Source: Clostridia bacterium
Lineage (GTDB): Bacteria; Bacillota; Clostridia; Oscillospirales; CAG-272
Direction of reading: 5' to 3'
Assembly (NCBI GenBank): GCA_017621475.1
Contig: JAGATA010000003.1
Span: forward strand, 76,072-140,071
Length of the DNA: 64,000 bases
Shown: positions 30,258 through 49,738 of the stretch, piece after piece
How positions within the stretch are numbered: the stretch's first letter is position 1
Layout of the letters: every line of letters begins with the position of its first letter
Notes under the pieces: generated by a model
Told to the model about the DNA's origin: nothing
What the model saw: the letters and a program-made list of their open reading frames with translations, nothing else
Database searches by the model: none
Translations under genes and position numbers: made by a program

Positions 30258-30965
30258 ATGATTTTTTTGAAAATTAAAATGATGTTCTTTTCGCTTCTTG
30301 AACGGCTCGGTCTTATAAAGGGCGTACATTACATAAGCACAACGGAAAGTTTGCCGCCGCCCATGAGCGCAGAAGAAGAAAATGATACCATAGCTCATTT
30401 GGAAGAAGATCCCGCACTTCGCAAGATACTTGTGGAAAGAAACCTTCGCCTTGTGGTCTATATTGCAAAAAAGTTCGAGAATACGGGAATAAATATAGAA
30501 GATCTTATCTCTATCGGAACTATAGGCCTTATAAAAGCCGCAAATACTTTTCGCGCAGATAAGAATATCAAACTTGCAACGTATGCTTCACGATGCATAG
30601 AGAACGAGATCCTTATGTATATAAGGAAGACGAATGGGGAGCGTCGCGAGCTTTCTTTCGATGAACCCCTGAATGTGGATAGGGACGGAAACGAGCTACT
30701 GCTTTCCGATATTTTGGGAAGCGATGGTGATACTGTAAGCGCCGATATAGAAAGTGCAGAGGAGAAAAAGATAATAGCACAGGCTGTTCGTTCTCTTTCT
30801 CCGAGAGAGCGTGAGATAATAGAACTGCGTTTCGGGCTTTGCGGAAGGCGCGAACTTACGCAAAAAGAAACTGCAAAAGCGCTTGGAATATCGCAGTCTT
30901 ACATATCTCGCCTTGAGAAAAAGATAATAGAAAGACTCAAAAAAGAAATTTCGGGAAAAATCTAA
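30258..30965 (+). CDS. sigE: Sporulation sigma factor E (pro-sigma-E)
   Basis: The pro-sequence plus [11 protein letters not shown] resembles B. subtilis EALPPPLSKDEE. Regions 2-4 are conserved ([20 protein letters not shown]). Confidence 0.9.
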
Positions 30966-36227: not shown

Positions 36228-37505
36228 ATGGAAGAAAACAAAGATTTGATTGAAGATGTGGAAGGTGCAGCTCCTGCCAAAAAGCCGAGAGCAAAAAAGA
36301 GCACGTCTGCTTCTTCCGGTGAAAAGAGAGTGAAAAAAGAAAAAGAGATAAACATTGACGATTATCTCGGTCACAACACTCCTCAAAAGCCCAAGGAAGA
36401 TGTGCTTGCTGACGAAAAGCCTGTGAACATCCAAGATCTTATTGATAAAGCGAAAGCTAAAGGCACGCTTTCCAACAGTGAGATCATGCAGGCGCTTGGC
36501 AACAGTGATTACGATATTGATCAGATCGATAAGCTCTACGAAGCGCTCGAAGGTCTTGGTATCGACGTTACGGAATACTTCAATGATGAAGACAAATATG
36601 ACGAAGATATCGAAAATGATCTTGAAAATTATGAAAGCGCGGAGGATATGGAACAGCTCCTCGCGCAGAAGGGTCTTGCTATAGATGACCCTGTTAAGAT
36701 GTACCTTAAAGAAATAGGTAAGGTTCCGCTTCTTACACCCGAACGTGAGGCAGAGCTTTCCAAGCTTATGTCCGAAGGCAATGAAAAGGCAAAGAAAGAA
36801 CTTGTTGAAGCTAACCTTCGCCTTGTTGTAAGCATTGCGAAACGTTATGTAGGCAAGGGTCTTTTCTTCCTTGATCTTATCCAGGAAGGTAACCTCGGTC
36901 TTATGAAGGCTGTTTCCAAATTTGACTATACAAAAGGTTATAAATTCTCCACATATGCAACTTGGTGGATAAGACAGGCAATAACAAGAGCTATTGCGGA
37001 TCAGGCAAGAACGATTCGTATACCCGTTCATATGGTAGAGACAATTCATAAAGTAACAAAGGTACAGCGTCAGATGCTTCAGGAATGCGGACGCGATGTT
37101 TCTGCGGATGAGATAGCGAAAGAAATGAATATGAGCTCCGAAAAGGTTCGCGAGATCATTAAGATCGCACAGGACCCCATTTCCCTTGAAACTCCTGTCG
37201 GTGAAGAAGAAGATAGCCACATAGGTGACTTTATCGAAGATGATACATCTCCCGCACCCGCCGATGCTGCTTCCTACACTCTCCTTCGCGAACAGCTTGA
37301 AGAGGTTTTGCACACACTCACCCCCAGAGAAGAACAGGTGCTCAAGCTTCGTTTTGGTCTTGAAGACGGACGCACGCGTACTCTTGAGGAGGTTGGACAG
37401 CAGTTTAACATCACAAGAGAACGTATTCGCCAGATAGAGGCGAAGGCTCTTCGTAAACTCCGCCACCCCAGCCGTTCCAAAAAACTTAAAGATTATCTCG
37501 ATTGA
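36228..37505 (+). CDS. rpoD: Primary sigma factor (SigA/RpoD)
   Basis: Acidic region 1, then [40 protein letters not shown] and [17 protein letters not shown]. Confidence 0.95.
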
Positions 37506-37684
37506 TTAAAAATATTTAAAATGTACAATTTATTTCACATTTGTTGTGAGAAATCCACATAGCTTTGTAATTAAGGTAGAAAAACGCGAAACAACTTTGT
37601 TAAATGTGACGAAATAAGCCCCAAAAAACTGAAAAAAATGCTTCAAAAGTGCCTGTTTGGGACTTTTGTGTAAGAAAAAAGACC

Positions 37685-37713
37685 TTGACACAAAAGCGCT
37701 TTTGTTGTAAAAT
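37685..37713 (+). promoter_or_regulatory. Sigma-A promoter of the giant lipoprotein gene
   Basis: TTGACA-17 nt-TAAAAT, ~100 nt upstream of the ATG. Confidence 0.6.
37690..37705. promoter_or_regulatory. Perfect 16-bp palindrome ACAAAAGCGCTTTTGT (putative operator) filling the promoter spacer
   Basis: Self-complementary by inspection. The 14-bp core CAAAAGCGCTTTTG recurs exactly at 48403..48416. Confidence 0.5.
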
Positions 37714-37763
37714 AAAATTGTTGCATAATACCATATATATAGTAGAAATATATATAAAAAGCT

Positions 37764-37798
37764 CTTGCACAGGAGCATAAATTGTGCAAGATTTTTAT
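37764..37798 (+). promoter_or_regulatory. Leader hairpin plus U-run just upstream of the RBS (possible attenuator)
   Basis: cttgcaca / tgtgcaag 8-bp stem, 11-nt loop, then atttttat. The RBS ggaggg follows at 37800. Confidence 0.3.
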
Positions 37799-37814
37799 CG
37801 GAGGGAGTCCAAAA

Positions 37815-40800
37815 ATGTTTAAGAAAATTTTGTCTTTAGCCTTGTGTCTCGGTATGTGTCTGAGTATTGCTCTTACGGCTACTTCGTGCGGCAAAAAAGA
37901 GGTAGAAGCGGCAACAGGCGATGTTCCTGCAACTTTCACACTTCTCGGCATTACCGAAGAAACAACCAAACCCGAATATGTTGAAATGGTTGAAGAAGCC
38001 ATAAACGGTATTCTTGCGCCTAGATACAAATCCAAGATCGAGCTTATGCTCGTTACAAAAGACGAGTATCTAGACCTTGTAGAGGACCAGCTTGACCTTG
38101 CTAAGTATTACGAAACATACGATGCTGCTGTTGCTACCTACAATACTTATGTAAAAAAACAATCCACATCTAACTATAATACCGAAAAAATATTCGGTAA
38201 CTGGATAAAACCCAAGGTTGAAATGAGTCTTGATACTCTCGCAACACGTTTGCTTTATGTTGCAGAGCAGACAACTATCCACGAAGACGGTAAAGTTGAA
38301 ACACTTTATCCCGAACCCCGTTCTCCCATCGATATTATTACTATCGCTGACGAAGATATGTACGACCTCTTCGATTCTTGGGGTCTTTTGAAACCCATCG
38401 AGGCTACATATACATCTTACCAGAACCTTCAGAAGTATATTTACCCTACATACTTCTCTCAGCTTAAAACACTCAAGGGCAATGTTTGCGCTATTCCCAA
38501 CAACAATATGCTTGCAGAATATACGTACTTGCTCGTTGACAAAGAACTTGCCGATAAGTACGATTACAATATCAATAATTTCAGAAGCTTTGCAGATCTT
38601 TCCGATTTCCTTGCTAAAGTAAAAGCAAGCGAAAGCGTTGTTCCTTTTGCAGAAGTACCCGAAGCTCTCGGCGTATTCTATACATTCTCCGAAGATATTG
38701 CTATCGGTACATATTTTGATCCCATCAAGGGCTTCAACGCAGAAGACCCCACATCCGGTTTTAAAATTCAGAACCTCTTTGAAGTAGAAGAATATGTTTC
38801 TCACCTCGCTCTTATGGAAGAGTATGAAGCAGCAGGTTACTTCGGCGGCAATGTAGGTAACGGTTATGCTGTTAAGGTTGTAAAAGGCGATGCTTCTTTG
38901 GCAGAGATCTATGCTGCTGAAGATTCCAAATACGACATCAAAGTTATTCAGAATCCCTTCGTTCTCAGAGAAGCTGTATTTAACGGTATGCTTGCCGTAA
39001 CATCTTATTCTTCCGATAACGAACGTGCAATGGAACTTATTGAAGCTATCAATACAGACTCCGTCATTAAGAATCTTCTCCAGTACGGTATTGAGGGCGT
39101 TAACTACGAAGTAAATGAAAACGGCGTAGTTGAAAGACTCAATAAAGATTATATGATGGATAACGCTCTTACAGGTAACGTTTATATGGGGTACCTTGAA
39201 GAAGGTATGGATGAAACAGAATGGCTCTATGTTCAGAGAACAAACTTGGCTTCTGCTCTTTCTCCTTCTCTTATCTATCCTGTTGACGATGCTTACCTTG
39301 AATCCAACCTTGAAAAGATTCTTCACAGAACAGCACTCTCCGAAGCACTTGCCGAAATCGGTTTGACATATGATCAGTATGACAGCGCTACAGGTTCTAC
39401 AGCTAACGCTTATGGCGATACACTTAAGAAACAGTTTAAAGACTATTTCGTACAACAGCTTATTAAAGAAAGCTATGCTACAGAAGAAAAAGTTGAATCC
39501 GTATTTGCAAGCAACACACCTAACTATTCTTGGTACGAAGACCAGATCGCTAAGAAGATAGTTAACGAAAAATATGCTGATGTTTGCACAACAAGCGAAC
39601 TCAACGTTCTTATTGAAACAAAGATGTGTTCTCCTGCGGATATTTATAATTCCTATACATCCGCCCGTGAAAAGGCATTGCCTTACTACAAAAATATCGA
39701 AAACTTGAGAATCGTTGCTCGTCTTACAGTTTTTTCTGACCTTACAGACGAAGAATATGAAGAAAAATATAATTCTCTTGGCGCAGGTGCTTTTGAAACA
39801 GCTGTTTATGAATATTTGAAGAGCACATACATTGAAGAAAACGACCTTACTGATGAAGAATACGCAGAACTCGTTAAATCCTTCATTATGTCCGCGCTTA
39901 CATTCTTTGATGAAAACAATCAGCAGGTAACATATACTTGGGAAGACTTTGAACAGATCAAGGAAGATGCTCAGAAGTTTGCTGAACCTATGGCTAAAGT
40001 AAGAGAAGCTTATACTGAAAGACTTATTGCAAACGGCTTTACCGAAGAACAGGTTAATGCAATAAATGACATTAAGCTCGGTGAAGAAGTTGTGGGTGTT
40101 ATCAGAGCTGAATATTACAGAAGTCAGAACCATACAGCATCTTCTTTTAGGACTGCTGTTAATAACAAGATCCTTCAGCCCTTCGGCATAGATTACGATG
40201 CATTCAAGGCTATGCAGAACAAGGATAACGCAGGCTACAACAACCTTTTGAAGAAGATGAAATCCGAGTATAAAGATGAGCTTCTTAAAACAATGACAAA
40301 GGACGAATATAACGCCCTTACGATTCCGAAAGTTTTCGACGCTGTATATGCTTACTTTATTGAAAACTATACTAAGGCATATGCTCAGATGTGCGAAGTT
40401 GCAGGTATTTCTTATAGCGAATATATGGAATACAGCGAATATATGGATAAATATATCGACTGCACAAGCCAGATGAAGAGTACATTCTTGTATACTATCC
40501 AGGAAATGTACACATCCGAAGCTGTTAACAAATTCACTCCTGCCGAAGTTGAAAAATATGTATATGAAGCTGTTTACAACGCAGGTTATTATATGAACCA
40601 GGTTGCATCCACTCTTGGTGTAACTCTTTCTGATTATAACTATGCTAAGAACAACGCTAAGAAATATACAGAATATCTCGATAAGCTCGTTGATTCCTAT
40701 AAAGGCGATCTTGCTCTTGCGGGATATAATGCAGCTGAAGTGAAGACATATTCTCCCGAAGATATCGAAGAAATCCTTTGCGAAATCGTTGAAAAGAAAC

Positions 40801-41006
40801 ATTTCGCAGAATATAAGTCTATTGAAGAGATTGCAGCTGAACTTTCTTCTTCCTACATCGCAGGTCTTAAGGATGCGGAAAATGTAACAGAATATTGCAA
40901 GACAAGCGCTAAAGCTCTTTCTGAAAATAATTTGTTCTTTACATTGATTAACTACCTTGACGAAAACTTGCAGAAACAACTCTCTTCTCTTAAAGAAAGC
41001 AAATAA
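37815..41006 (+). CDS. Giant lipoprotein: SBP-like N-terminal half fused to ~580-aa Tyr/Glu-rich C-terminal region
   Basis: ATG after ggaggg. Signal peptide with lipobox LTATSC. GNVCAIPNN..YLLVDKELADKY and NLLQYGIEGVNYEV resemble family-1 sugar-binding lipoproteins. The C-terminal half has no motif I recognise. Confidence 0.7.
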   Translation: MFKKILSLALCLGMCLSIALTATSCGKKEVEAATGDVPATFTLLGITEETTKPEYVEMVEEAINGILAPRYKSKIELMLVTKDEYLDLVEDQLDLAKYYETYDAAVATYNTYVKKQSTSNYNTEKIFGNWIKPKVEMSLDTLATRLLYVAEQTTIHEDGKVETLYPEPRSPIDIITIADEDMYDLFDSWGLLKPIEATYTSYQNLQKYIYPTYFSQLKTLKGNVCAIPNNNMLAEYTYLLVDKELADKYDYNINNFRSFADLSDFLAKVKASESVVPFAEVPEALGVFYTFSEDIAIGTYFDPIKGFNAEDPTSGFKIQNLFEVEEYVSHLALMEEYEAAGYFGGNVGNGYAVKVVKGDASLAEIYAAEDSKYDIKVIQNPFVLREAVFNGMLAVTSYSSDNERAMELIEAINTDSVIKNLLQYGIEGVNYEVNENGVVERLNKDYMMDNALTGNVYMGYLEEGMDETEWLYVQRTNLASALSPSLIYPVDDAYLESNLEKILHRTALSEALAEIGLTYDQYDSATGSTANAYGDTLKKQFKDYFVQQLIKESYATEEKVESVFASNTPNYSWYEDQIAKKIVNEKYADVCTTSELNVLIETKMCSPADIYNSYTSAREKALPYYKNIENLRIVARLTVFSDLTDEEYEEKYNSLGAGAFETAVYEYLKSTYIEENDLTDEEYAELVKSFIMSALTFFDENNQQVTYTWEDFEQIKEDAQKFAEPMAKVREAYTERLIANGFTEEQVNAINDIKLGEEVVGVIRAEYYRSQNHTASSFRTAVNNKILQPFGIDYDAFKAMQNKDNAGYNNLLKKMKSEYKDELLKTMTKDEYNALTIPKVFDAVYAYFIENYTKAYAQMCEVAGISYSEYMEYSEYMDKYIDCTSQMKSTFLYTIQEMYTSEAVNKFTPAEVEKYVYEAVYNAGYYMNQVASTLGVTLSDYNYAKNNAKKYTEYLDKLVDSYKGDLALAGYNAAEVKTYSPEDIEEILCEIVEKKHFAEYKSIEEIAAELSSSYIAGLKDAENVTEYCKTSAKALSENNLFFTLINYLDENLQKQLSSLKESK

Positions 41007-41029
41007 TTCTTCCTAACATATTCATCCCC

Positions 41030-41061
41030 AAAAAAGAAACGGCGTAAGCCGTTTCTTTTTT
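41030..41061 (+). terminator. Rho-independent terminator
   Basis: aaaaagaaacggc / gccgtttcttttt stem, gtaa loop, T-run. Confidence 0.7.
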
Positions 41062-41101
41062 GCTTTTAAGCCGACATAGGTCAGCTTTTTTTCTTATTTA
41101 A

Positions 41102-41135
41102 GTCATATTGCGGGGGACAAGTCGATATATATAAT
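41102..41135 (+). promoter_or_regulatory. Candidate sigma-E-type promoter of the spoIIIA operon
   Basis: GTCATATT (-35 like ..ATATT) and TATATAAT 18 nt downstream (6/8 to CATACAAT), ~25 nt upstream of the TTG start. Confidence 0.35.
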
Positions 41136-41159
41136 GTATGAGAAAGGAAGTGAAATAGT

Positions 41160-42062
41160 TTGAATCATTTGGAAAAAGTGCTTGTATGCTTGCCGGAAAA
41201 GGAAAGAGGGGCTCTTGCTTCGTTTTTGTCGCGCGTGTCTGCAAATAAAATTACGGAAATTAGGCTGCGTGCAGAAGCACCGTCTTCCGTGACTTATGAG
41301 GGGCGTAACGTATATCTTTTTTCGGGCGCAGAGGTAAGATTCAGCGAGCAAGAGCTCCGTGGAATTGTTTCGAGATTGTGCGAAGAATCTATTCACACTT
41401 ACAGTGAAAGTATGAAGCAGGGATATATAACTTTGGATAATGGTATGAGGATCGGGGTATGCGGCAGCGCCGTCTGCGATGGGGACCGCATTCTGGGCTT
41501 ACGAGATGTGACTTCGTTATCTATTCGTATCCCTCATATTTTCCGCGGAGTTGCGGATGAAGTGCTGCCTATTATATGCAACGGGGACAAAATACAAAGC
41601 GCTCTTTTTTATTCGCCGCCGGGAGTAGGAAAAACGACGCTTATAAGAGATATAGCTATGCGCTTGGGCGGCGGAGCCAAGAGGTTTCGAGTTTGTGTTG
41701 TCGATACAAGGAGCGAAATATATATAAAAGAATTTTTCTCTCATTCGCTTTGCGATTTTTTGGATGGTTATCCAAAGGGGCTTGGCATAGAGATAGCAAC
41801 GCGAACTTTTTCGCCTCAAGTTGTTATATGTGATGAGATTGGAGACATTTCCGAAGCTAACGCTATACTTTCCACGCAAAACAGCGGTGTTCCTCTTATA
41901 GCTACGGCACATGGGGAGAACATAGCTTCACTTATGCTTCGCCCTAATATAAAAATATTACACGATGCGGGAATTTTTCGTTATTACATAGAGATAAAGC
42001 GTGATAATGGGGGAGAAAAATGTATTTTCAGCGTTACAGATACGATGCGGAGGCTTGAATGA
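41160..42062 (+). CDS. spoIIIAA: Stage III sporulation protein AA (ATPase)
   Basis: TTG start after aaaggaag. Walker A SPPGVGKTTLIRD. First gene of an 8-gene operon. Confidence 0.85.
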   Translation: MNHLEKVLVCLPEKERGALASFLSRVSANKITEIRLRAEAPSSVTYEGRNVYLFSGAEVRFSEQELRGIVSRLCEESIHTYSESMKQGYITLDNGMRIGVCGSAVCDGDRILGLRDVTSLSIRIPHIFRGVADEVLPIICNGDKIQSALFYSPPGVGKTTLIRDIAMRLGGGAKRFRVCVVDTRSEIYIKEFFSHSLCDFLDGYPKGLGIEIATRTFSPQVVICDEIGDISEANAILSTQNSGVPLIATAHGENIASLMLRPNIKILHDAGIFRYYIEIKRDNGGEKCIFSVTDTMRRLE

Positions 42063-45962: not shown

Positions 45963-45980
45963 GATTACATAATCATATAG

Positions 45981-46008
45981 AAAGACATAGCGCGTGCTAT
46001 GTCTTTTT
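45981..46008 (+). terminator. Rho-independent terminator of the spoIIIA operon
   Basis: aaagacatagc / gctatgtcttt stem followed by TTTTT. Confidence 0.7.
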
Positions 46009-46068
46009 GTGTTGAATATCAAACTATGGTTGAGTTATAAACAACTATTTGATAATTGCTTTTTGCAG

Positions 46069-46105
46069 AGTTATCTGCTAGAATATAATCACACCGGTGA
46101 TAACT
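46069..46105. promoter_or_regulatory. Inverted repeat AGTTATC-N23-GATAACT bracketing the -10 region upstream of the 46125 regulator
   Basis: The two arms are exact reverse complements. TGcTAGAAT / TATAAT -10 candidates at 46076-46089 lie inside the repeat. Confidence 0.35.
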
Positions 46106-46124
46106 ATTTCAAGGAGGAGCTACT

Positions 46125-47291
46125 ATGCAACTTAATTTAGGAAGAAAAATACGCGAACTGCGCCGCCGCGACGGGCGAACGCAAGATGATCTTGCAGAGA
46201 CTCTAGGTGTGACGGCACAAGCCGTTTCCCGTTGGGAATCGGGCGGCAGTTATCCCGATATGGAGATGATACCTGCTATTGCAAATTACTTTCATATTTC
46301 TATTGACGAACTTTTCGGTTATCACGATGACAGGGAAGAAAAGATAGGAAATATTCTCCATAAGGCTTCCGAGGTCCTCACTAAACAGGGTTTTTTGATG
46401 TATCAAGGATGCCTTTCGGACGATTTTGAAGATTGCATCAATATGTTGCGCGAAGCCTCGGATGAATTTCCCAATGAGCCGAAGATACTTTTAAAACTTG
46501 CCCAAGCCCTTCATATGTGGGGATGGCATAAATACGGAGGGAGAGCAAAGCCTGCCGACTCATCGGGCATAATAGGCGATGATACGGAATACAATTCTAA
46601 AAATATTTATTGGCAGGAAGCAGTTCGTGTATATGAAAAATTGCTCAAAACAGATGCGTCTGCCGACCAACGCGAGGTCGCAATTCGTCAGCTTGTGGTT
46701 CTTTACTGCCGAATGGGAGCATACGAAAAATCAAAGGCACTTGCGAACGCTCAAAATACGCTTACCGTTTGCAAGGAAATACTGTTGCCTATGGCAACAG
46801 CGGGCGAAGAAAAAGCAAAATACCAAGACAAAAGAATTATGGCGCTTTTGAGCAGCCTCAGATCTTCTGTTACCAACGCTGTTGCTATGAGGCCTTCTGT
46901 ATATTCTTCAGAATACGGCAGAGAAATTCTCTTATCGGTTTTAAATCTGTATGAAACGATATTCATTGACGGCAGATGCGGGCGTTGGCATCAGGAAATC
47001 GGGGAATTATATTTGACCTTGGCGGACAGTGAGATAGGAAAAAACGTCAGCTTGGAAGAATCGCTTGTGTACTTTGACAAAGCGTTTGATCATTTTAAAG
47101 AGTATAAACGTATTTACAATGAAGGTGAATATAAGTATTCGGCGCCGTTAGTTTTAAATTTGCCGATGATAGCAAAGGGAGAGCTTGCCCCTGTGGGAGA
47201 TGATTTTTGGACAAAGAGGTTAAGAATGTTTCCTCAAAATATCGTTGATGAAATTCGCAAAAACCCGAAGTACGCCGAATGCTTTGAATAA
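46125..47291 (+). CDS. XRE-family HTH transcriptional regulator with ~320-aa helical (TPR-like) C-terminal domain
   Basis: aaggagg RBS. LGRKIRELRRRDGRTQDDLAETLGVTAQAVSRWESG is a Cro/C1 HTH. Confidence 0.8.
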   Translation: MQLNLGRKIRELRRRDGRTQDDLAETLGVTAQAVSRWESGGSYPDMEMIPAIANYFHISIDELFGYHDDREEKIGNILHKASEVLTKQGFLMYQGCLSDDFEDCINMLREASDEFPNEPKILLKLAQALHMWGWHKYGGRAKPADSSGIIGDDTEYNSKNIYWQEAVRVYEKLLKTDASADQREVAIRQLVVLYCRMGAYEKSKALANAQNTLTVCKEILLPMATAGEEKAKYQDKRIMALLSSLRSSVTNAVAMRPSVYSSEYGREILLSVLNLYETIFIDGRCGRWHQEIGELYLTLADSEIGKNVSLEESLVYFDKAFDHFKEYKRIYNEGEYKYSAPLVLNLPMIAKGELAPVGDDFWTKRLRMFPQNIVDEIRKNPKYAECFE

Positions 47292-47292
47292 T

Positions 47293-47320
47293 GGAAAACC
47301 ACGCGTAAGCGTGGTTTTCC
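47293..47320. terminator. Bidirectional terminator shared by the two convergent XRE genes
   Basis: ggaaaaccacgc / gcgtggttttcc 12-bp perfect stem with gtaa loop. Confidence 0.7.
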
Positions 47321-47323
47321 GTG

Positions 47324-48379
47324 TTATATATGTTGCAAAGAATTTTTTATAAAAATGAAGCGCTCGTCGTTTGCGATAGACTCAAATAATTTACTTTTAT
47401 TATTTATATAGCGCCAATATTGATGAGAGAGGCTCTCCTCACTGTGCTTTTTAAAGTCTTCTTTTGTTGCCGTCAAGGTATTTACAAGCGGGGAAGTGTG
47501 TCTTATTTTATCGAAGCTTTGAGCTTTTTCAAAATGGGAAAGCATTTTTTCGAGCTCCACAAGTGCTTGTTCGTTTTCGCCGAGCTCCATACTGTCGCAA
47601 GCCATAAAGAAGCAAAGTCTGCCAAGTCTGTCTTCCCAATATCCGAAATCTCCGTCGGGAAAAATAGTATAAAAAATATCGTAAAGGGCTTTTCTCATTT
47701 GATGATTCTCATTTGCGGTGTAAGGAGCATCCTTTCTGTTTAAAAGATAGCTTAACTCAACGTACATCTTGTCGCAAATATTATAAAAGAATTTTTGACA
47801 ATGCTCGGTAAGCTCCTCGCCTTTAAGAATGTGTACCAAAAGGTCGTCATATTCTGGCAGCATTTTTGCATAGCGGAGTGCGTTTCCTTCATCACCGTTT
47901 TCCTTCCAAGAAAAACAGAGCGCTCTTATGGCTCCTAATTTATATTCTGCGTTTTGGGATGAAAGCAGAGTTTCGCCAAGCATTATTATTTCATCAAAAT
48001 TTTCCTTAGCATATCCGTTTTGTAGAGCACGCATAAGATAAAACATTACAGTTTCATCATTGGGGTATTTTTTCTGCATTTCGCGGCAAAGTTTAAGCCG
48101 TTCATCTGTTTTTCCTTCGCTATGTAAGAGGGCATTTTCTTCTGTGAATCTTTTTATTTCTGCTTGTTTTTTGCTTTTGACTATATCTATTTCAAGAAGT
48201 ATATCTGCGCTTACTTCGAAAATGCCTGCAAGGATAGGCAAATGGGAAATATCCGGCGCGGTCTTATCACATTCCCATTGGGAAACGGAATTTGCGGAAA
48301 CTCCCAAATATTCTGCGAGTTGTTCTTGGGTTATATTACGCTCTCTGCGTAATTTTTTGATGGTTGTTCCTATTGACAT
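47324..48379 (-). CDS. XRE-family HTH transcriptional regulator, paralogue of 46125..47291
   Basis: IKKLRRERNITQEQLAEYLGVSANSVSQWE HTH. The C-terminal blocks (IFYTIFPDGDFGYWEDRLGRL, LVELEKMLSHFEKA) align with the neighbour (LYETIFIDGRCGRWHQEIGEL, LVYFDKAFDHFKEY). Confidence 0.8.
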   Translation of the reverse strand: MSIGTTIKKLRRERNITQEQLAEYLGVSANSVSQWECDKTAPDISHLPILAGIFEVSADILLEIDIVKSKKQAEIKRFTEENALLHSEGKTDERLKLCREMQKKYPNDETVMFYLMRALQNGYAKENFDEIIMLGETLLSSQNAEYKLGAIRALCFSWKENGDEGNALRYAKMLPEYDDLLVHILKGEELTEHCQKFFYNICDKMYVELSYLLNRKDAPYTANENHQMRKALYDIFYTIFPDGDFGYWEDRLGRLCFFMACDSMELGENEQALVELEKMLSHFEKAQSFDKIRHTSPLVNTLTATKEDFKKHSEESLSHQYWRYINNKSKLFESIANDERFIFIKNSLQHI

Positions 48380-48402
48380 ATAAAAACCTCCTTTTATTTT
48401 TT

Positions 48403-48416
48403 CAAAAGCGCTTTTG
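48403..48416. promoter_or_regulatory. 14-bp perfect palindrome CAAAAGCGCTTTTG (putative operator) between the -10 and the RBS of the 47324..48379 regulator
   Basis: Identical to the core of the palindrome at 37690..37705. It starts 3 nt downstream of the proximal TATAAT. Confidence 0.5.
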
Positions 48417-48418
48417 TA

Positions 48419-48429
48419 ATTATATTATA
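48419..48429 (-). promoter_or_regulatory. Two overlapping TATAAT -10 hexamers for the 47324..48379 regulator
   Basis: Minus strand reads cTATAATATAATta. Only a weak -35 (TTTTCA) is present. Confidence 0.4.
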
Positions 48430-48523
48430 GGAGAAAATTTTGAAAAATCCCACAAAGTGTTTTGCGAACTTTTGTAAAGACCGGCTTCATTTTTGCAATC
48501 GTTGCTTACAAAAGGGAAGACAC

Positions 48524-48554
48524 AAAAAAACCGAAGCCGTGAGGCTTCGGTTTT
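48524..48554 (-). terminator. Rho-independent terminator of the ABC ATPase gene
   Basis: aaaaccgaagcc / ggcttcggtttt stem, followed on the minus strand by T7. Confidence 0.7.
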
Positions 48555-48565
48555 GGGTATTCTGA

Positions 48566-49738
48566 TTAGTGGCAGATGCACTTTTCTGTATCTTTGTCGA
48601 AGATGTGAACGCGTTCTGTATCGATAGCGATTGTGATTGTGTCACCGCCGCGAGCCTGGGATCTGGGAGATACACGAGCTGTGAGCTTAACTTCGCCGGA
48701 ACGGTCGATAACAACGTTCTTTTTCTTCATCTGAGCTTCATCAATAACAACTTTGTTAGCAACGAGGTAGAGGTAGATTTCAGCACCCATAAGTTCTGTT
48801 ACGTCAACGTAAACGTCGAATGCGGAATCCTTGAGAGCTGCGATCTGAGCGGGTGTGTCAACGATAGCTTCGGGACGAACACCTGCGATAACGTCTTTTC
48901 CGATGTATTCTTTGAGTTCGGGAAGGTTAGCTTTGCCTTCGGGAAGTTTGATCTTAACTTCGCCGAATTCGAGGTATGTACCGTTACCTTCTTTGATGAG
49001 CTTACAGTTGATGAAGTTCATCTGAGGTGTGCCGATAAAGCCTGCAACGAATACATTGCAAGGTGTATCGTAGAGGTTCTGAGGTGTGTCAACCTGCTGG
49101 ATGATACCGTCTTTCATAACAACGATACGAGTAGCCATTGTCATAGCTTCTACCTGGTCGTGTGTTACGTATACGAATGTAGCGCCGAGGGTATTGTGGA
49201 GCTTTGTAATTTCAGTTCTCATGCCTGCACGGAGCTTAGCGTCAAGGTTGGAAAGAGGTTCGTCAAGAAGGAATACCTTGGGTTCACGAACGAGCGCACG
49301 GCCGAGAGCAACACGCTGTTTCTGACCACCGGAAAGAGCCTTCGGGAATCTGTCAAGAAGGTGAGAGATGTCGAGGATACGAGCAGCTTCTTCAACTTTA
49401 CGTTTGATAGTTTCTTTGGGAACTTTGCGGAGTTTAAGACCGAACGCCATATTGTCGAATACTGTCATATGGGGGTAAAGAGCATAGTTCTGGAACACCA
49501 TCGCGATGTCACGGTCTTTGGGGGCAACGTCGTTTACAAGACGGTCGCCGATGTAAAGTTCGCCTTCGGAAATTTCTTCAAGACCGGCGATCATACGAAG
49601 AGTTGTGGATTTACCGCAACCGGAAGGACCAACGAATACGATGAATTCTGTGTCTTTGATTTCAAGACAGAAGTCGGAAACGGCTGTAACACCGCCGGGG
49701 TATTTTTTGTAGATGTGTCTGAGTGATAAGCTTGCCAT
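48566..49738 (-). CDS. Sugar-ABC-transporter ATP-binding protein (MsmX/MalK/UgpC type), stand-alone
   Basis: Walker A GPSGCGKST, LSGGQKQRVALGRAL, Walker B VFLLDEPLSNLD and a C-terminal MalK-like regulatory domain. No permease or SBP gene is adjacent. Confidence 0.85.
   Translation of the reverse strand: MASLSLRHIYKKYPGGVTAVSDFCLEIKDTEFIVFVGPSGCGKSTTLRMIAGLEEISEGELYIGDRLVNDVAPKDRDIAMVFQNYALYPHMTVFDNMAFGLKLRKVPKETIKRKVEEAARILDISHLLDRFPKALSGGQKQRVALGRALVREPKVFLLDEPLSNLDAKLRAGMRTEITKLHNTLGATFVYVTHDQVEAMTMATRIVVMKDGIIQQVDTPQNLYDTPCNVFVAGFIGTPQMNFINCKLIKEGNGTYLEFGEVKIKLPEGKANLPELKEYIGKDVIAGVRPEAIVDTPAQIAALKDSAFDVYVDVTELMGAEIYLYLVANKVVIDEAQMKKKNVVIDRSGEVKLTARVSPRSQARGGDTITIAIDTERVHIFDKDTEKCICH

Follow-up and report, generated by a model that had tools for sequence, protein, structure and literature searches.

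A palindrome of 14 nucleotides, CAAAAGCGCTTTTG, serves, almost certainly, as the DNA element by which a helix-turn-helix (HTH) regulator of the XRE family, designated here as XRE1, controls its own gene, as judged from the comparison of related loci, and a second exact copy of this palindrome lies in the promoter of a gene encoding a large lipoprotein. According to the model favoured here, which as a whole is considered moderately probable, XRE1 binds both copies and represses its own gene together with the lipoprotein gene. The term "window" is used below for the whole 64-kb stretch of DNA that was analysed, "site A" for the copy at the lipoprotein promoter and "site B" for the copy at the promoter of XRE1; the coordinates are collected in Table 1.

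An exact search of the 64 kb returned CAAAAGCGCTTTTG at 37691..37704 and 48403..48416 alone, in agreement with the preliminary description, which had counted exactly two copies and placed both near promoters; both are intergenic and located within sigma-A-type promoters. Variants with one or two mismatches are absent from the window. With up to three mismatches 17 matches in total were obtained against 9.3 ± 3.2 in shuffles; the 15 sites with three mismatches all fall within long open reading frames and are judged to be at chance level, including the 11-nt match at 30874 inside the sigma-factor frame 30258..30965 (235 aa), which had already been called coincidental. This is the sole 14-nt palindrome repeated in the window, and the only regions with at least four CAAAAG/CTTTTG-type hexamers per 150 nt are the promoter regions of the lipoprotein gene and of 47324..48379. 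The rarity claimed earlier for the 14-mer stands at a composition-corrected expectation of 2.7e-4 per 64 kb, while the previous figure of 5e-4 had assumed equiprobable bases on two strands; since the lipoprotein promoter spacer is already operator-like in distant orthologues, such a naive chance estimate exaggerates the surprise. The distances given before, 7.4 kb from the end of the lipoprotein gene and 10.7 kb from its promoter, are correct.

Table 1. Positions and sequences of the predicted operators, promoters, genes and compared spacers (window numbering unless a locus is named; percentages are lipoprotein identities to the window).
Feature	Position	Strand	Sequence or remark
Site A, second operator copy (predicted)	37691..37704		exact match; 16-bp palindrome 37690-37705 with flanks
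Lipoprotein promoter	37685..37713	+	TTGACA (37685-37690), N17, TAAAAT (37708-37713); consensus scan 11/12
Extra inverted half-sites upstream of lipoprotein -35	37644..37668		CAAAAG 37644-37649, CTTTTG 37663-37668
Lipoprotein 5' leader	37714..37814	+	conserved down to 62% orthologues (alignment by eye)
Lipoprotein, presumed target	37815..41006	+	1063 aa; predicted signal peptide, invariant Cys25
Site B, predicted operator at the regulator's own promoter	48403..48416		ACAAAAGCGCTTTTGA on minus strand; exact match and orthologue conservation
XRE1 promoter	48419..48446	-	TTTTCA (48446..48441), 16 nt, TATAAT (48424..48419); consensus scan 10/12
Auxiliary half-site-like hexamers upstream of XRE1 promoter	48459..48474		ACAAAAGTTCGCAAAAC on minus strand
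XRE1	47324..48379	-	351 aa; HTH_3 (aa 7-61) and sensor domain of ~285 aa, modelled as all-helical and TPR-like
Variable island, window	45963-48566
Variable island, L116	18255-19187
Variable island, L118	7069-10467
Variable island, L122	18339-21744
Lipoprotein promoter spacer, window			CAAAAGCGCTTTTG
Spacer, L001 and L122 (85%)			CAAAAGCTCTTTTG
Spacer, L117 (83%)			CAAAAGTGCTTTTG
Spacer, L113 (81%)			CAAAAGCGCTTTTG
Spacer, L110 (65%)			CAAAGGTGCGTTTG
Spacer, L116 (65%)			TGAAAGTCCTTTTG; left half-site damaged (TGAAAG)
Spacer, L115 (62%)			CCACGGTGCTTTTG
Spacer, L089 (61%)			CGGTTTCTCTTTTG
Spacer, L120 (48%) and L121 (45%)			CAAAAAGCCTTTTG

On the minus strand the proximal TATAAT of the regulator promoter, overlapped by a second TATAAT (48429..48424), is followed by 2 nt (not 3 nt, as stated before), the palindrome, 10 nt, and the ribosome-binding site GGAGG, just upstream of which the palindrome had been located before; site B thereby spans approximately -4 to +10 relative to the proximal -10. 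The additional CTTTTG-like half-sites noticed upstream are real and read GTTTTG (48459-48464) and CTTTTG (48469-48474) on the plus strand, and the auxiliary CAAAAG copy persists in L001, L118, and L122 but is gone in orthologues of 60% identity.

For comparison 80 regulator loci were collected by genome scan; their sources are uncultured Oscillospiraceae, together with other Clostridia, from gut and rumen. The motif CAAAAG-N2-CTTTTG with no more than one half-site mismatch precedes the start codon in 45 of 49 XRE1 orthologues (51–91% identity), most typically in the arrangement TGTATAAT-N7-CAAAAGCGCTTTTG-AAT about 40 nt before the ATG, and the palindrome keeps its fixed distance after the -10 even in orthologues of 51–62% identity without common neighbours. 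The same half-sites are retained in 17 of 25 distant relatives, in which the HTH is 70–79% identical and the sensor domain is a different one, only 18–28% identical to that of XRE1; among the orthologues themselves the HTH is nearly invariant (79–92% identity) and the C-terminal domain is about 52% identical. Information content is highest on the 14-mer, where only the two central bases vary (CG, TG, CA, TA).

The distribution of the motif is equally narrow. A search of 118 related loci (1.6 Mb) gave 66 sites with no more than one mismatch, 63 at promoters of the regulator family and 3 at the lipoprotein promoters of close relatives, and none elsewhere in these loci. No conserved neighbour or target gene was found beside the XRE1 orthologues, any one neighbour being common to at most 6 of 53 loci; therefore the conservation of the operator is not due to synteny. 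The earlier claim of autoregulation is thus strongly supported, as the palindrome accompanies the promoter of a family member at more than 60 loci where the surrounding genes differ completely, and autorepression by XRE1 is held to be highly probable on these alignments. Two orthologues of 58–59% identity with the same recognition helix (L012, upstream of the match at about 10001, and L021, upstream of that at about 321) possess a different promoter region without the palindrome, which suggests that autoregulation was lost or the promoter replaced there.

Several other features of these regulator loci were recorded. In two orthologues an insert with GGTTCGACTCCCCAATGCATAA, a sequence reminiscent of the tRNA T-arm, separates the operator from the ribosome-binding site (L047, 9917-9998; L052, 9682-9998) and shifts the palindrome 80–300 nt from the start codon. 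Past the terminator of the regulator gene, 35–60 nt after the stop codon, about nine orthologues conserve CACAAAAGCAGTGCTTGTCAGGAAAA with one ACAAAAG half-site inside (L004, L006, L008, L009, L016, L019, L030, L034, and L048), which could be an auxiliary site or just reflect shared ancestry of the flank. A phage origin of the operator was considered and rejected: the 18-mer TACAAAAGCGCTTTTGAA had one exact match in 2.9 million viral contigs (L123, 1527-1544), and this match is attributed to chance since it lies inside a helicase-like frame, in a giant-virus bin.

The XRE1 orthologues (L002–L054) also carry a conserved distal promoter, TTGACT-N17-TGTGATAAACT, about 115 nt upstream. Between it and the proximal -10 there is a conserved 75-nt block, ACTGTAAAAATTAAAGyr..TTGAATT..GTAAAATrCTTGGTGTAAAA, in which GTAAAA is repeated three times; promoter and block together take up roughly -120 to -20 counted from the palindrome. 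The clade of the window has this block in weak form or not at all. RNAalifold predicted no pairs in the block, a seeming AAAGCA/TGCTT covariation proved unfounded, and a helix drawn by hand scored the same as shuffles; the block may accordingly be a site for another factor. Transcription from the distal promoter could include the palindrome, which is the point in favour of reading it as a hairpin of the regulator mRNA leader, active as RNA rather than as a DNA site. This reading is very improbable: the lipoprotein copy is situated between -35 and -10, outside the transcript, the arms are conserved in sequence without compensatory changes, the stem would consist of only five A-U-rich pairs, and the upstream block gave neither an RNAalifold structure nor a hand-drawn helix better than shuffles.

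The regulator itself belongs to the XRE/Cro-cI HTH_3 proteins (PF01381, 49.8 bits against a Pfam cutoff of 23, aa 7–61), with NAVSQWEC as the recognition helix of the XRE1-type HTH; Pfam assigns no further domain and no TPR match. Sequence matches in the PDB are limited to the HTH (ImmR-like, P22 C2). The AlphaFold2 model (pLDDT 82) is all-helical, and among its full-length matches to solved structures Foldseek ranks PlcR (E 2e-6), PrgX, and Rgg2 highest, with generic TPR proteins next, at TM-scores that are low, about 0.2–0.3 (global 0.26–0.32 against PlcR). A terminator stands on either side of the gene in the window, leaving no space for an adjacent frame; its orthologues are monocistronic and end in a conserved terminator. 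No propeptide gene adjoins XRE1 or its orthologues, and downstream there is no conserved small frame, only the terminator. Given this lack of a neighbouring small frame, XRE1 is modelled as an orphan receptor of RRNPP-like type, and the resemblance of its C-terminal domain to the ligand-binding domain of PlcR, PrgX, and Rgg makes it probable that DNA binding is under the control of a ligand.

XRE1 is the sole gene of the window with an XRE1-type HTH, and it is located in a variable island between spoIIIAH and the gene of an MsmX-like ATPase, which holds one to three regulators of the putative HTH+TPR type in differing combinations. The window contains XRE1 and XRE2 (46125..47291), L001 only XRE1, L118 and L122 contain XRE1, XRE2, and XRE3 (310 aa), and L116 only XRE3, and more distant genomes have unrelated genes at this position. 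Directly after a TATAAT(ATAAT) -10 both XRE2 and XRE3 carry palindromes of their own, with a CACCGGTG core for the former (window 46092-46099) and TCGTAAGCTTACGA for the latter. Since these differ and occupy the equivalent position, the operators follow particular regulators and are not a general promoter feature, and CAAAAGCGCTTTTG is assigned to the XRE1-type HTH. XRE2 was dismissed as the binder: its HTH is 42% identical, its palindrome is another one, and it is absent from L001, which has both sites. The previous choice of 47324..48379 as the relevant gene is therefore upheld.

In the lipoprotein promoter site A takes up positions 1–14 of the 17-nt spacer and lies 111 nt before the ATG. 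This promoter is the best sigma-70 match of the region, and the pattern TTGACA-N17-TAnnWT is present in every lipoprotein orthologue examined, down to 26% protein identity. Such exact conservation of a promoter is unusually strict for an unannotated gene (window 36228-42062 and L081–L122).

Perfect half-sites within this spacer were found in five genomes with lipoproteins at least 81% identical, where the centres vary (CG in the window and L113, CT in L001 and L122, TG in L117) and the upstream flank diverges; of the extra half-sites upstream of the promoter only CAAAAG is kept in L001, L117, and L122. Because this clade has almost the whole promoter and leader in common, the agreement is weak independent evidence. 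The spacers of distant orthologues are degenerate, with 1–9 half-site mismatches, mostly 6 or fewer, and 2 in L110, L090, L099, L105, L116, and L119. Nearly all orthologues, even those with 5–6 mismatches, retain the TTTTG right half and a CA or CAAA at the start of the spacer, which means that part of the match is inherited promoter sequence. Of 140 distinct TTGACA-N17-TAnnWT sites, those with two or fewer half-site mismatches are all lipoprotein promoters, and at three or fewer this is still essentially so, the mode of the background being 6–9.

Where both promoters can be seen, XRE1 in the island and a perfect lipoprotein site occur together in three of three genomes (the window, L001, and L122). 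The locus of L118 has XRE1 and stops before the lipoprotein promoter, its lipoprotein being 92% identical to that of L117; the sister genome L116 has XRE3 in place of XRE1 and the damaged left half-site. Pairing at the level of whole assemblies added nothing, since the lipoprotein contig prefixes CBDNWX, CBDQNI, JAZPJS, and JAZMNE match no collected regulator locus. The palindrome thus accompanies both genes in these three genomes, and the perfect site is confined to relatives whose lipoprotein is at least 81% identical.

These data leave some room, though the possibility is judged unlikely, for autoregulation being real and the lipoprotein copy having no regulatory role, its spacer having drifted from a near-motif to a perfect match in one clade. 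Such drift would be short, as several distant spacers are only one or two half-site mismatches away (CAAAAAGCCTTTTG in L120 and L121, and the six named above), the TTTTG half is near-universal, and the clade with perfect half-sites is narrow with almost identical promoters. However, the persistence of an operator-like spacer at 38–48% protein identity points to selection, ordinary promoter-like sites of the same genomes are typically 6–9 mismatches off, the changes within the clade hit the same two central positions that vary at the regulators' operators, and in the sister L116, whose island has no XRE1, the left half is gone. From the comparison of these promoters site A is rather likely to be functional, and repression of the lipoprotein gene by XRE1 is plausible. 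The lipoprotein link may go far back, at varying strength, or a spacer that was pre-adapted may have reached the perfect match in a single lineage, and both would fit a function in this genome. Hence, of the earlier proposal that the regulator represses both genes, the autorepression part gains firm comparative backing from the 45 of 49 orthologues, and the lipoprotein part is plausible for one clade only.

The identity of the protein bound at site A is less certain than at site B, because the HTH module is common to paralogues and six MAGs hold two members of the family (for example, L039 and L056, L011 and L072, and L005 and L033). It is accordingly conceivable, at a somewhat lower probability than drift, that both palindromes are operators and that the binder, at least at the lipoprotein promoter, is another member of the HTH family with its gene outside the window or, considering the AAAGCGCTTT core, a LacI/CcpA-type protein. 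Members whose sensors are merely 18–28% identical keep a 70–79% identical HTH and the half-sites at their own promoters, and the view of the source genome covers 64 kb. XRE1 speaks against another family member by being alone in the window with this HTH, by its location 10 kb from the target, and by its co-occurrence with the perfect lipoprotein site. The cre consensus has outer TG...CA around a central CG; the palindrome has CA...TG at the outer positions where cre needs TG...CA, and was on that account rejected as a CcpA site, and no LacI-type gene is found next to either copy.

The presumed target is predicted to combine an N-terminal half resembling solute-binding proteins with a C-terminal half of about 500 aa that is helical, with Cys25 following a hydrophobic N-terminus and invariant among the orthologues. 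No match for this family was found in Pfam or NCBIfam; the orthologue profile matched the pneumococcal extracellular solute-binding proteins 5swa, 5suo, and 5mlt with E about 1e-19, over aa 203–553 only. Orthologues of 26–85% identity always follow sigA and in most cases precede spoIIIAA. The leader of the gene (window 37720-37817) folds into a long-range stem UUGCAUAAU/AUUGUGCAA around two hairpins; next comes a U-run immediately ahead of the ribosome-binding site. The single-sequence energy is -20.7 kcal/mol (z = -2.6). The leader matched no Rfam family and gave no consensus structure across distant orthologues. It could be an attenuator, and its high sequence conservation in close orthologues together with this fold suggests a further layer of control.

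In the circuit proposed, the operator CAAAAG-N2-CTTTTG would be read by the Cro/cI-type HTH of an XRE1 dimer. At the regulator promoter the dimer would sit just after the -10 and across the transcription start, where it would block RNA polymerase and cause self-repression; at the lipoprotein promoter it would lie in the spacer between -35 and -10, exclude the polymerase, and so repress the gene. A ligand on the TPR-like C-terminal domain would switch DNA binding on or off. Binding and its repressive sign are read at both sites from position only, and general promoter knowledge is what suggests that polymerase would be excluded from either promoter once its site is occupied.

The nearest described analogue of this circuit appears to be that of the orphan RRNPP-type regulator RstA of Clostridioides difficile, an HTH+TPR protein that represses its own gene via an inverted repeat overlapping its sigma-A promoter and acts on further promoters by sterically blocking RNA polymerase, likewise with repression as the outcome (PMC6414698); the resemblance is functional and architectural only. 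RstA combines an N-terminal HTH with TPR-type repeats, as is predicted for XRE1, and both proteins lack an adjacent peptide gene and occur in spore-forming Clostridia, the XRE1 gene adjoining the spoIIIA operon. They differ in that the RstA repeat is a 29-bp imperfect, AT-rich sequence with no clear consensus, whereas the operator of XRE1 is a sharp 14–16-bp palindrome found family-wide, and in that RstA targets toxin and flagellar genes and the presumed target of XRE1 is a solute-binding-like lipoprotein.

The regulator resembles the RRNPP receptors PlcR, PrgX, and Rgg in its predicted combination of HTH and helical repeats, and those receptors bind palindromic boxes and commonly autoregulate; unlike them, XRE1 has no neighbouring propeptide gene. 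The boxes from which PlcR activates lie upstream of the -35, whereas the two palindromes described here overlap the core promoter, an arrangement in keeping with repression. Among solved HTH sequences the closest are those of phage-type Cro/cI repressors (434, P22 C2, and ICEBs1 ImmR), which likewise use short palindromes overlapping promoters, and the outer ACAA...TTGT bases of the palindrome are presumably common to the operators of phage 434. XRE1 differs from these repressors in its 285-aa sensor domain, which stands in place of a small dimerisation or cleavage domain, and in an operator that is not phage-associated, with a single chance match in 2.9 million viral contigs.

In summary, a regulator family that is uncharacterised and widespread among uncultured Oscillospiraceae of gut and rumen gains a precise operator, ACAAAAG-YR-CTTTTGA, and a first candidate target, a conserved unannotated lipoprotein of about 1000 aa between sigA and the spoIIIA operon, whose promoter would be a clear case of a binding site perfected in one lineage within otherwise frozen sequence. 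The mechanism itself is already known, being the standard autorepressing HTH circuit in an unstudied protein family. The most interesting lead is the HTH and operator common to diverged sensors throughout the family. It is only tentatively proposed that this superfamily consists of orphan PlcR-like receptors with one HTH and one operator whose sensors have diverged to the point of being barely recognisable, forming in gut Oscillospiraceae a hub in which many sensors address one operator. Several members per genome may then converge on their own promoters and on the sigma-A promoter of the lipoprotein gene, and the operator-like lipoprotein spacer, traceable down to about 40% identity, may represent an old link and not a recent gain. 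If the idea of a shared operator is true, many sensor domains would feed one small regulon.
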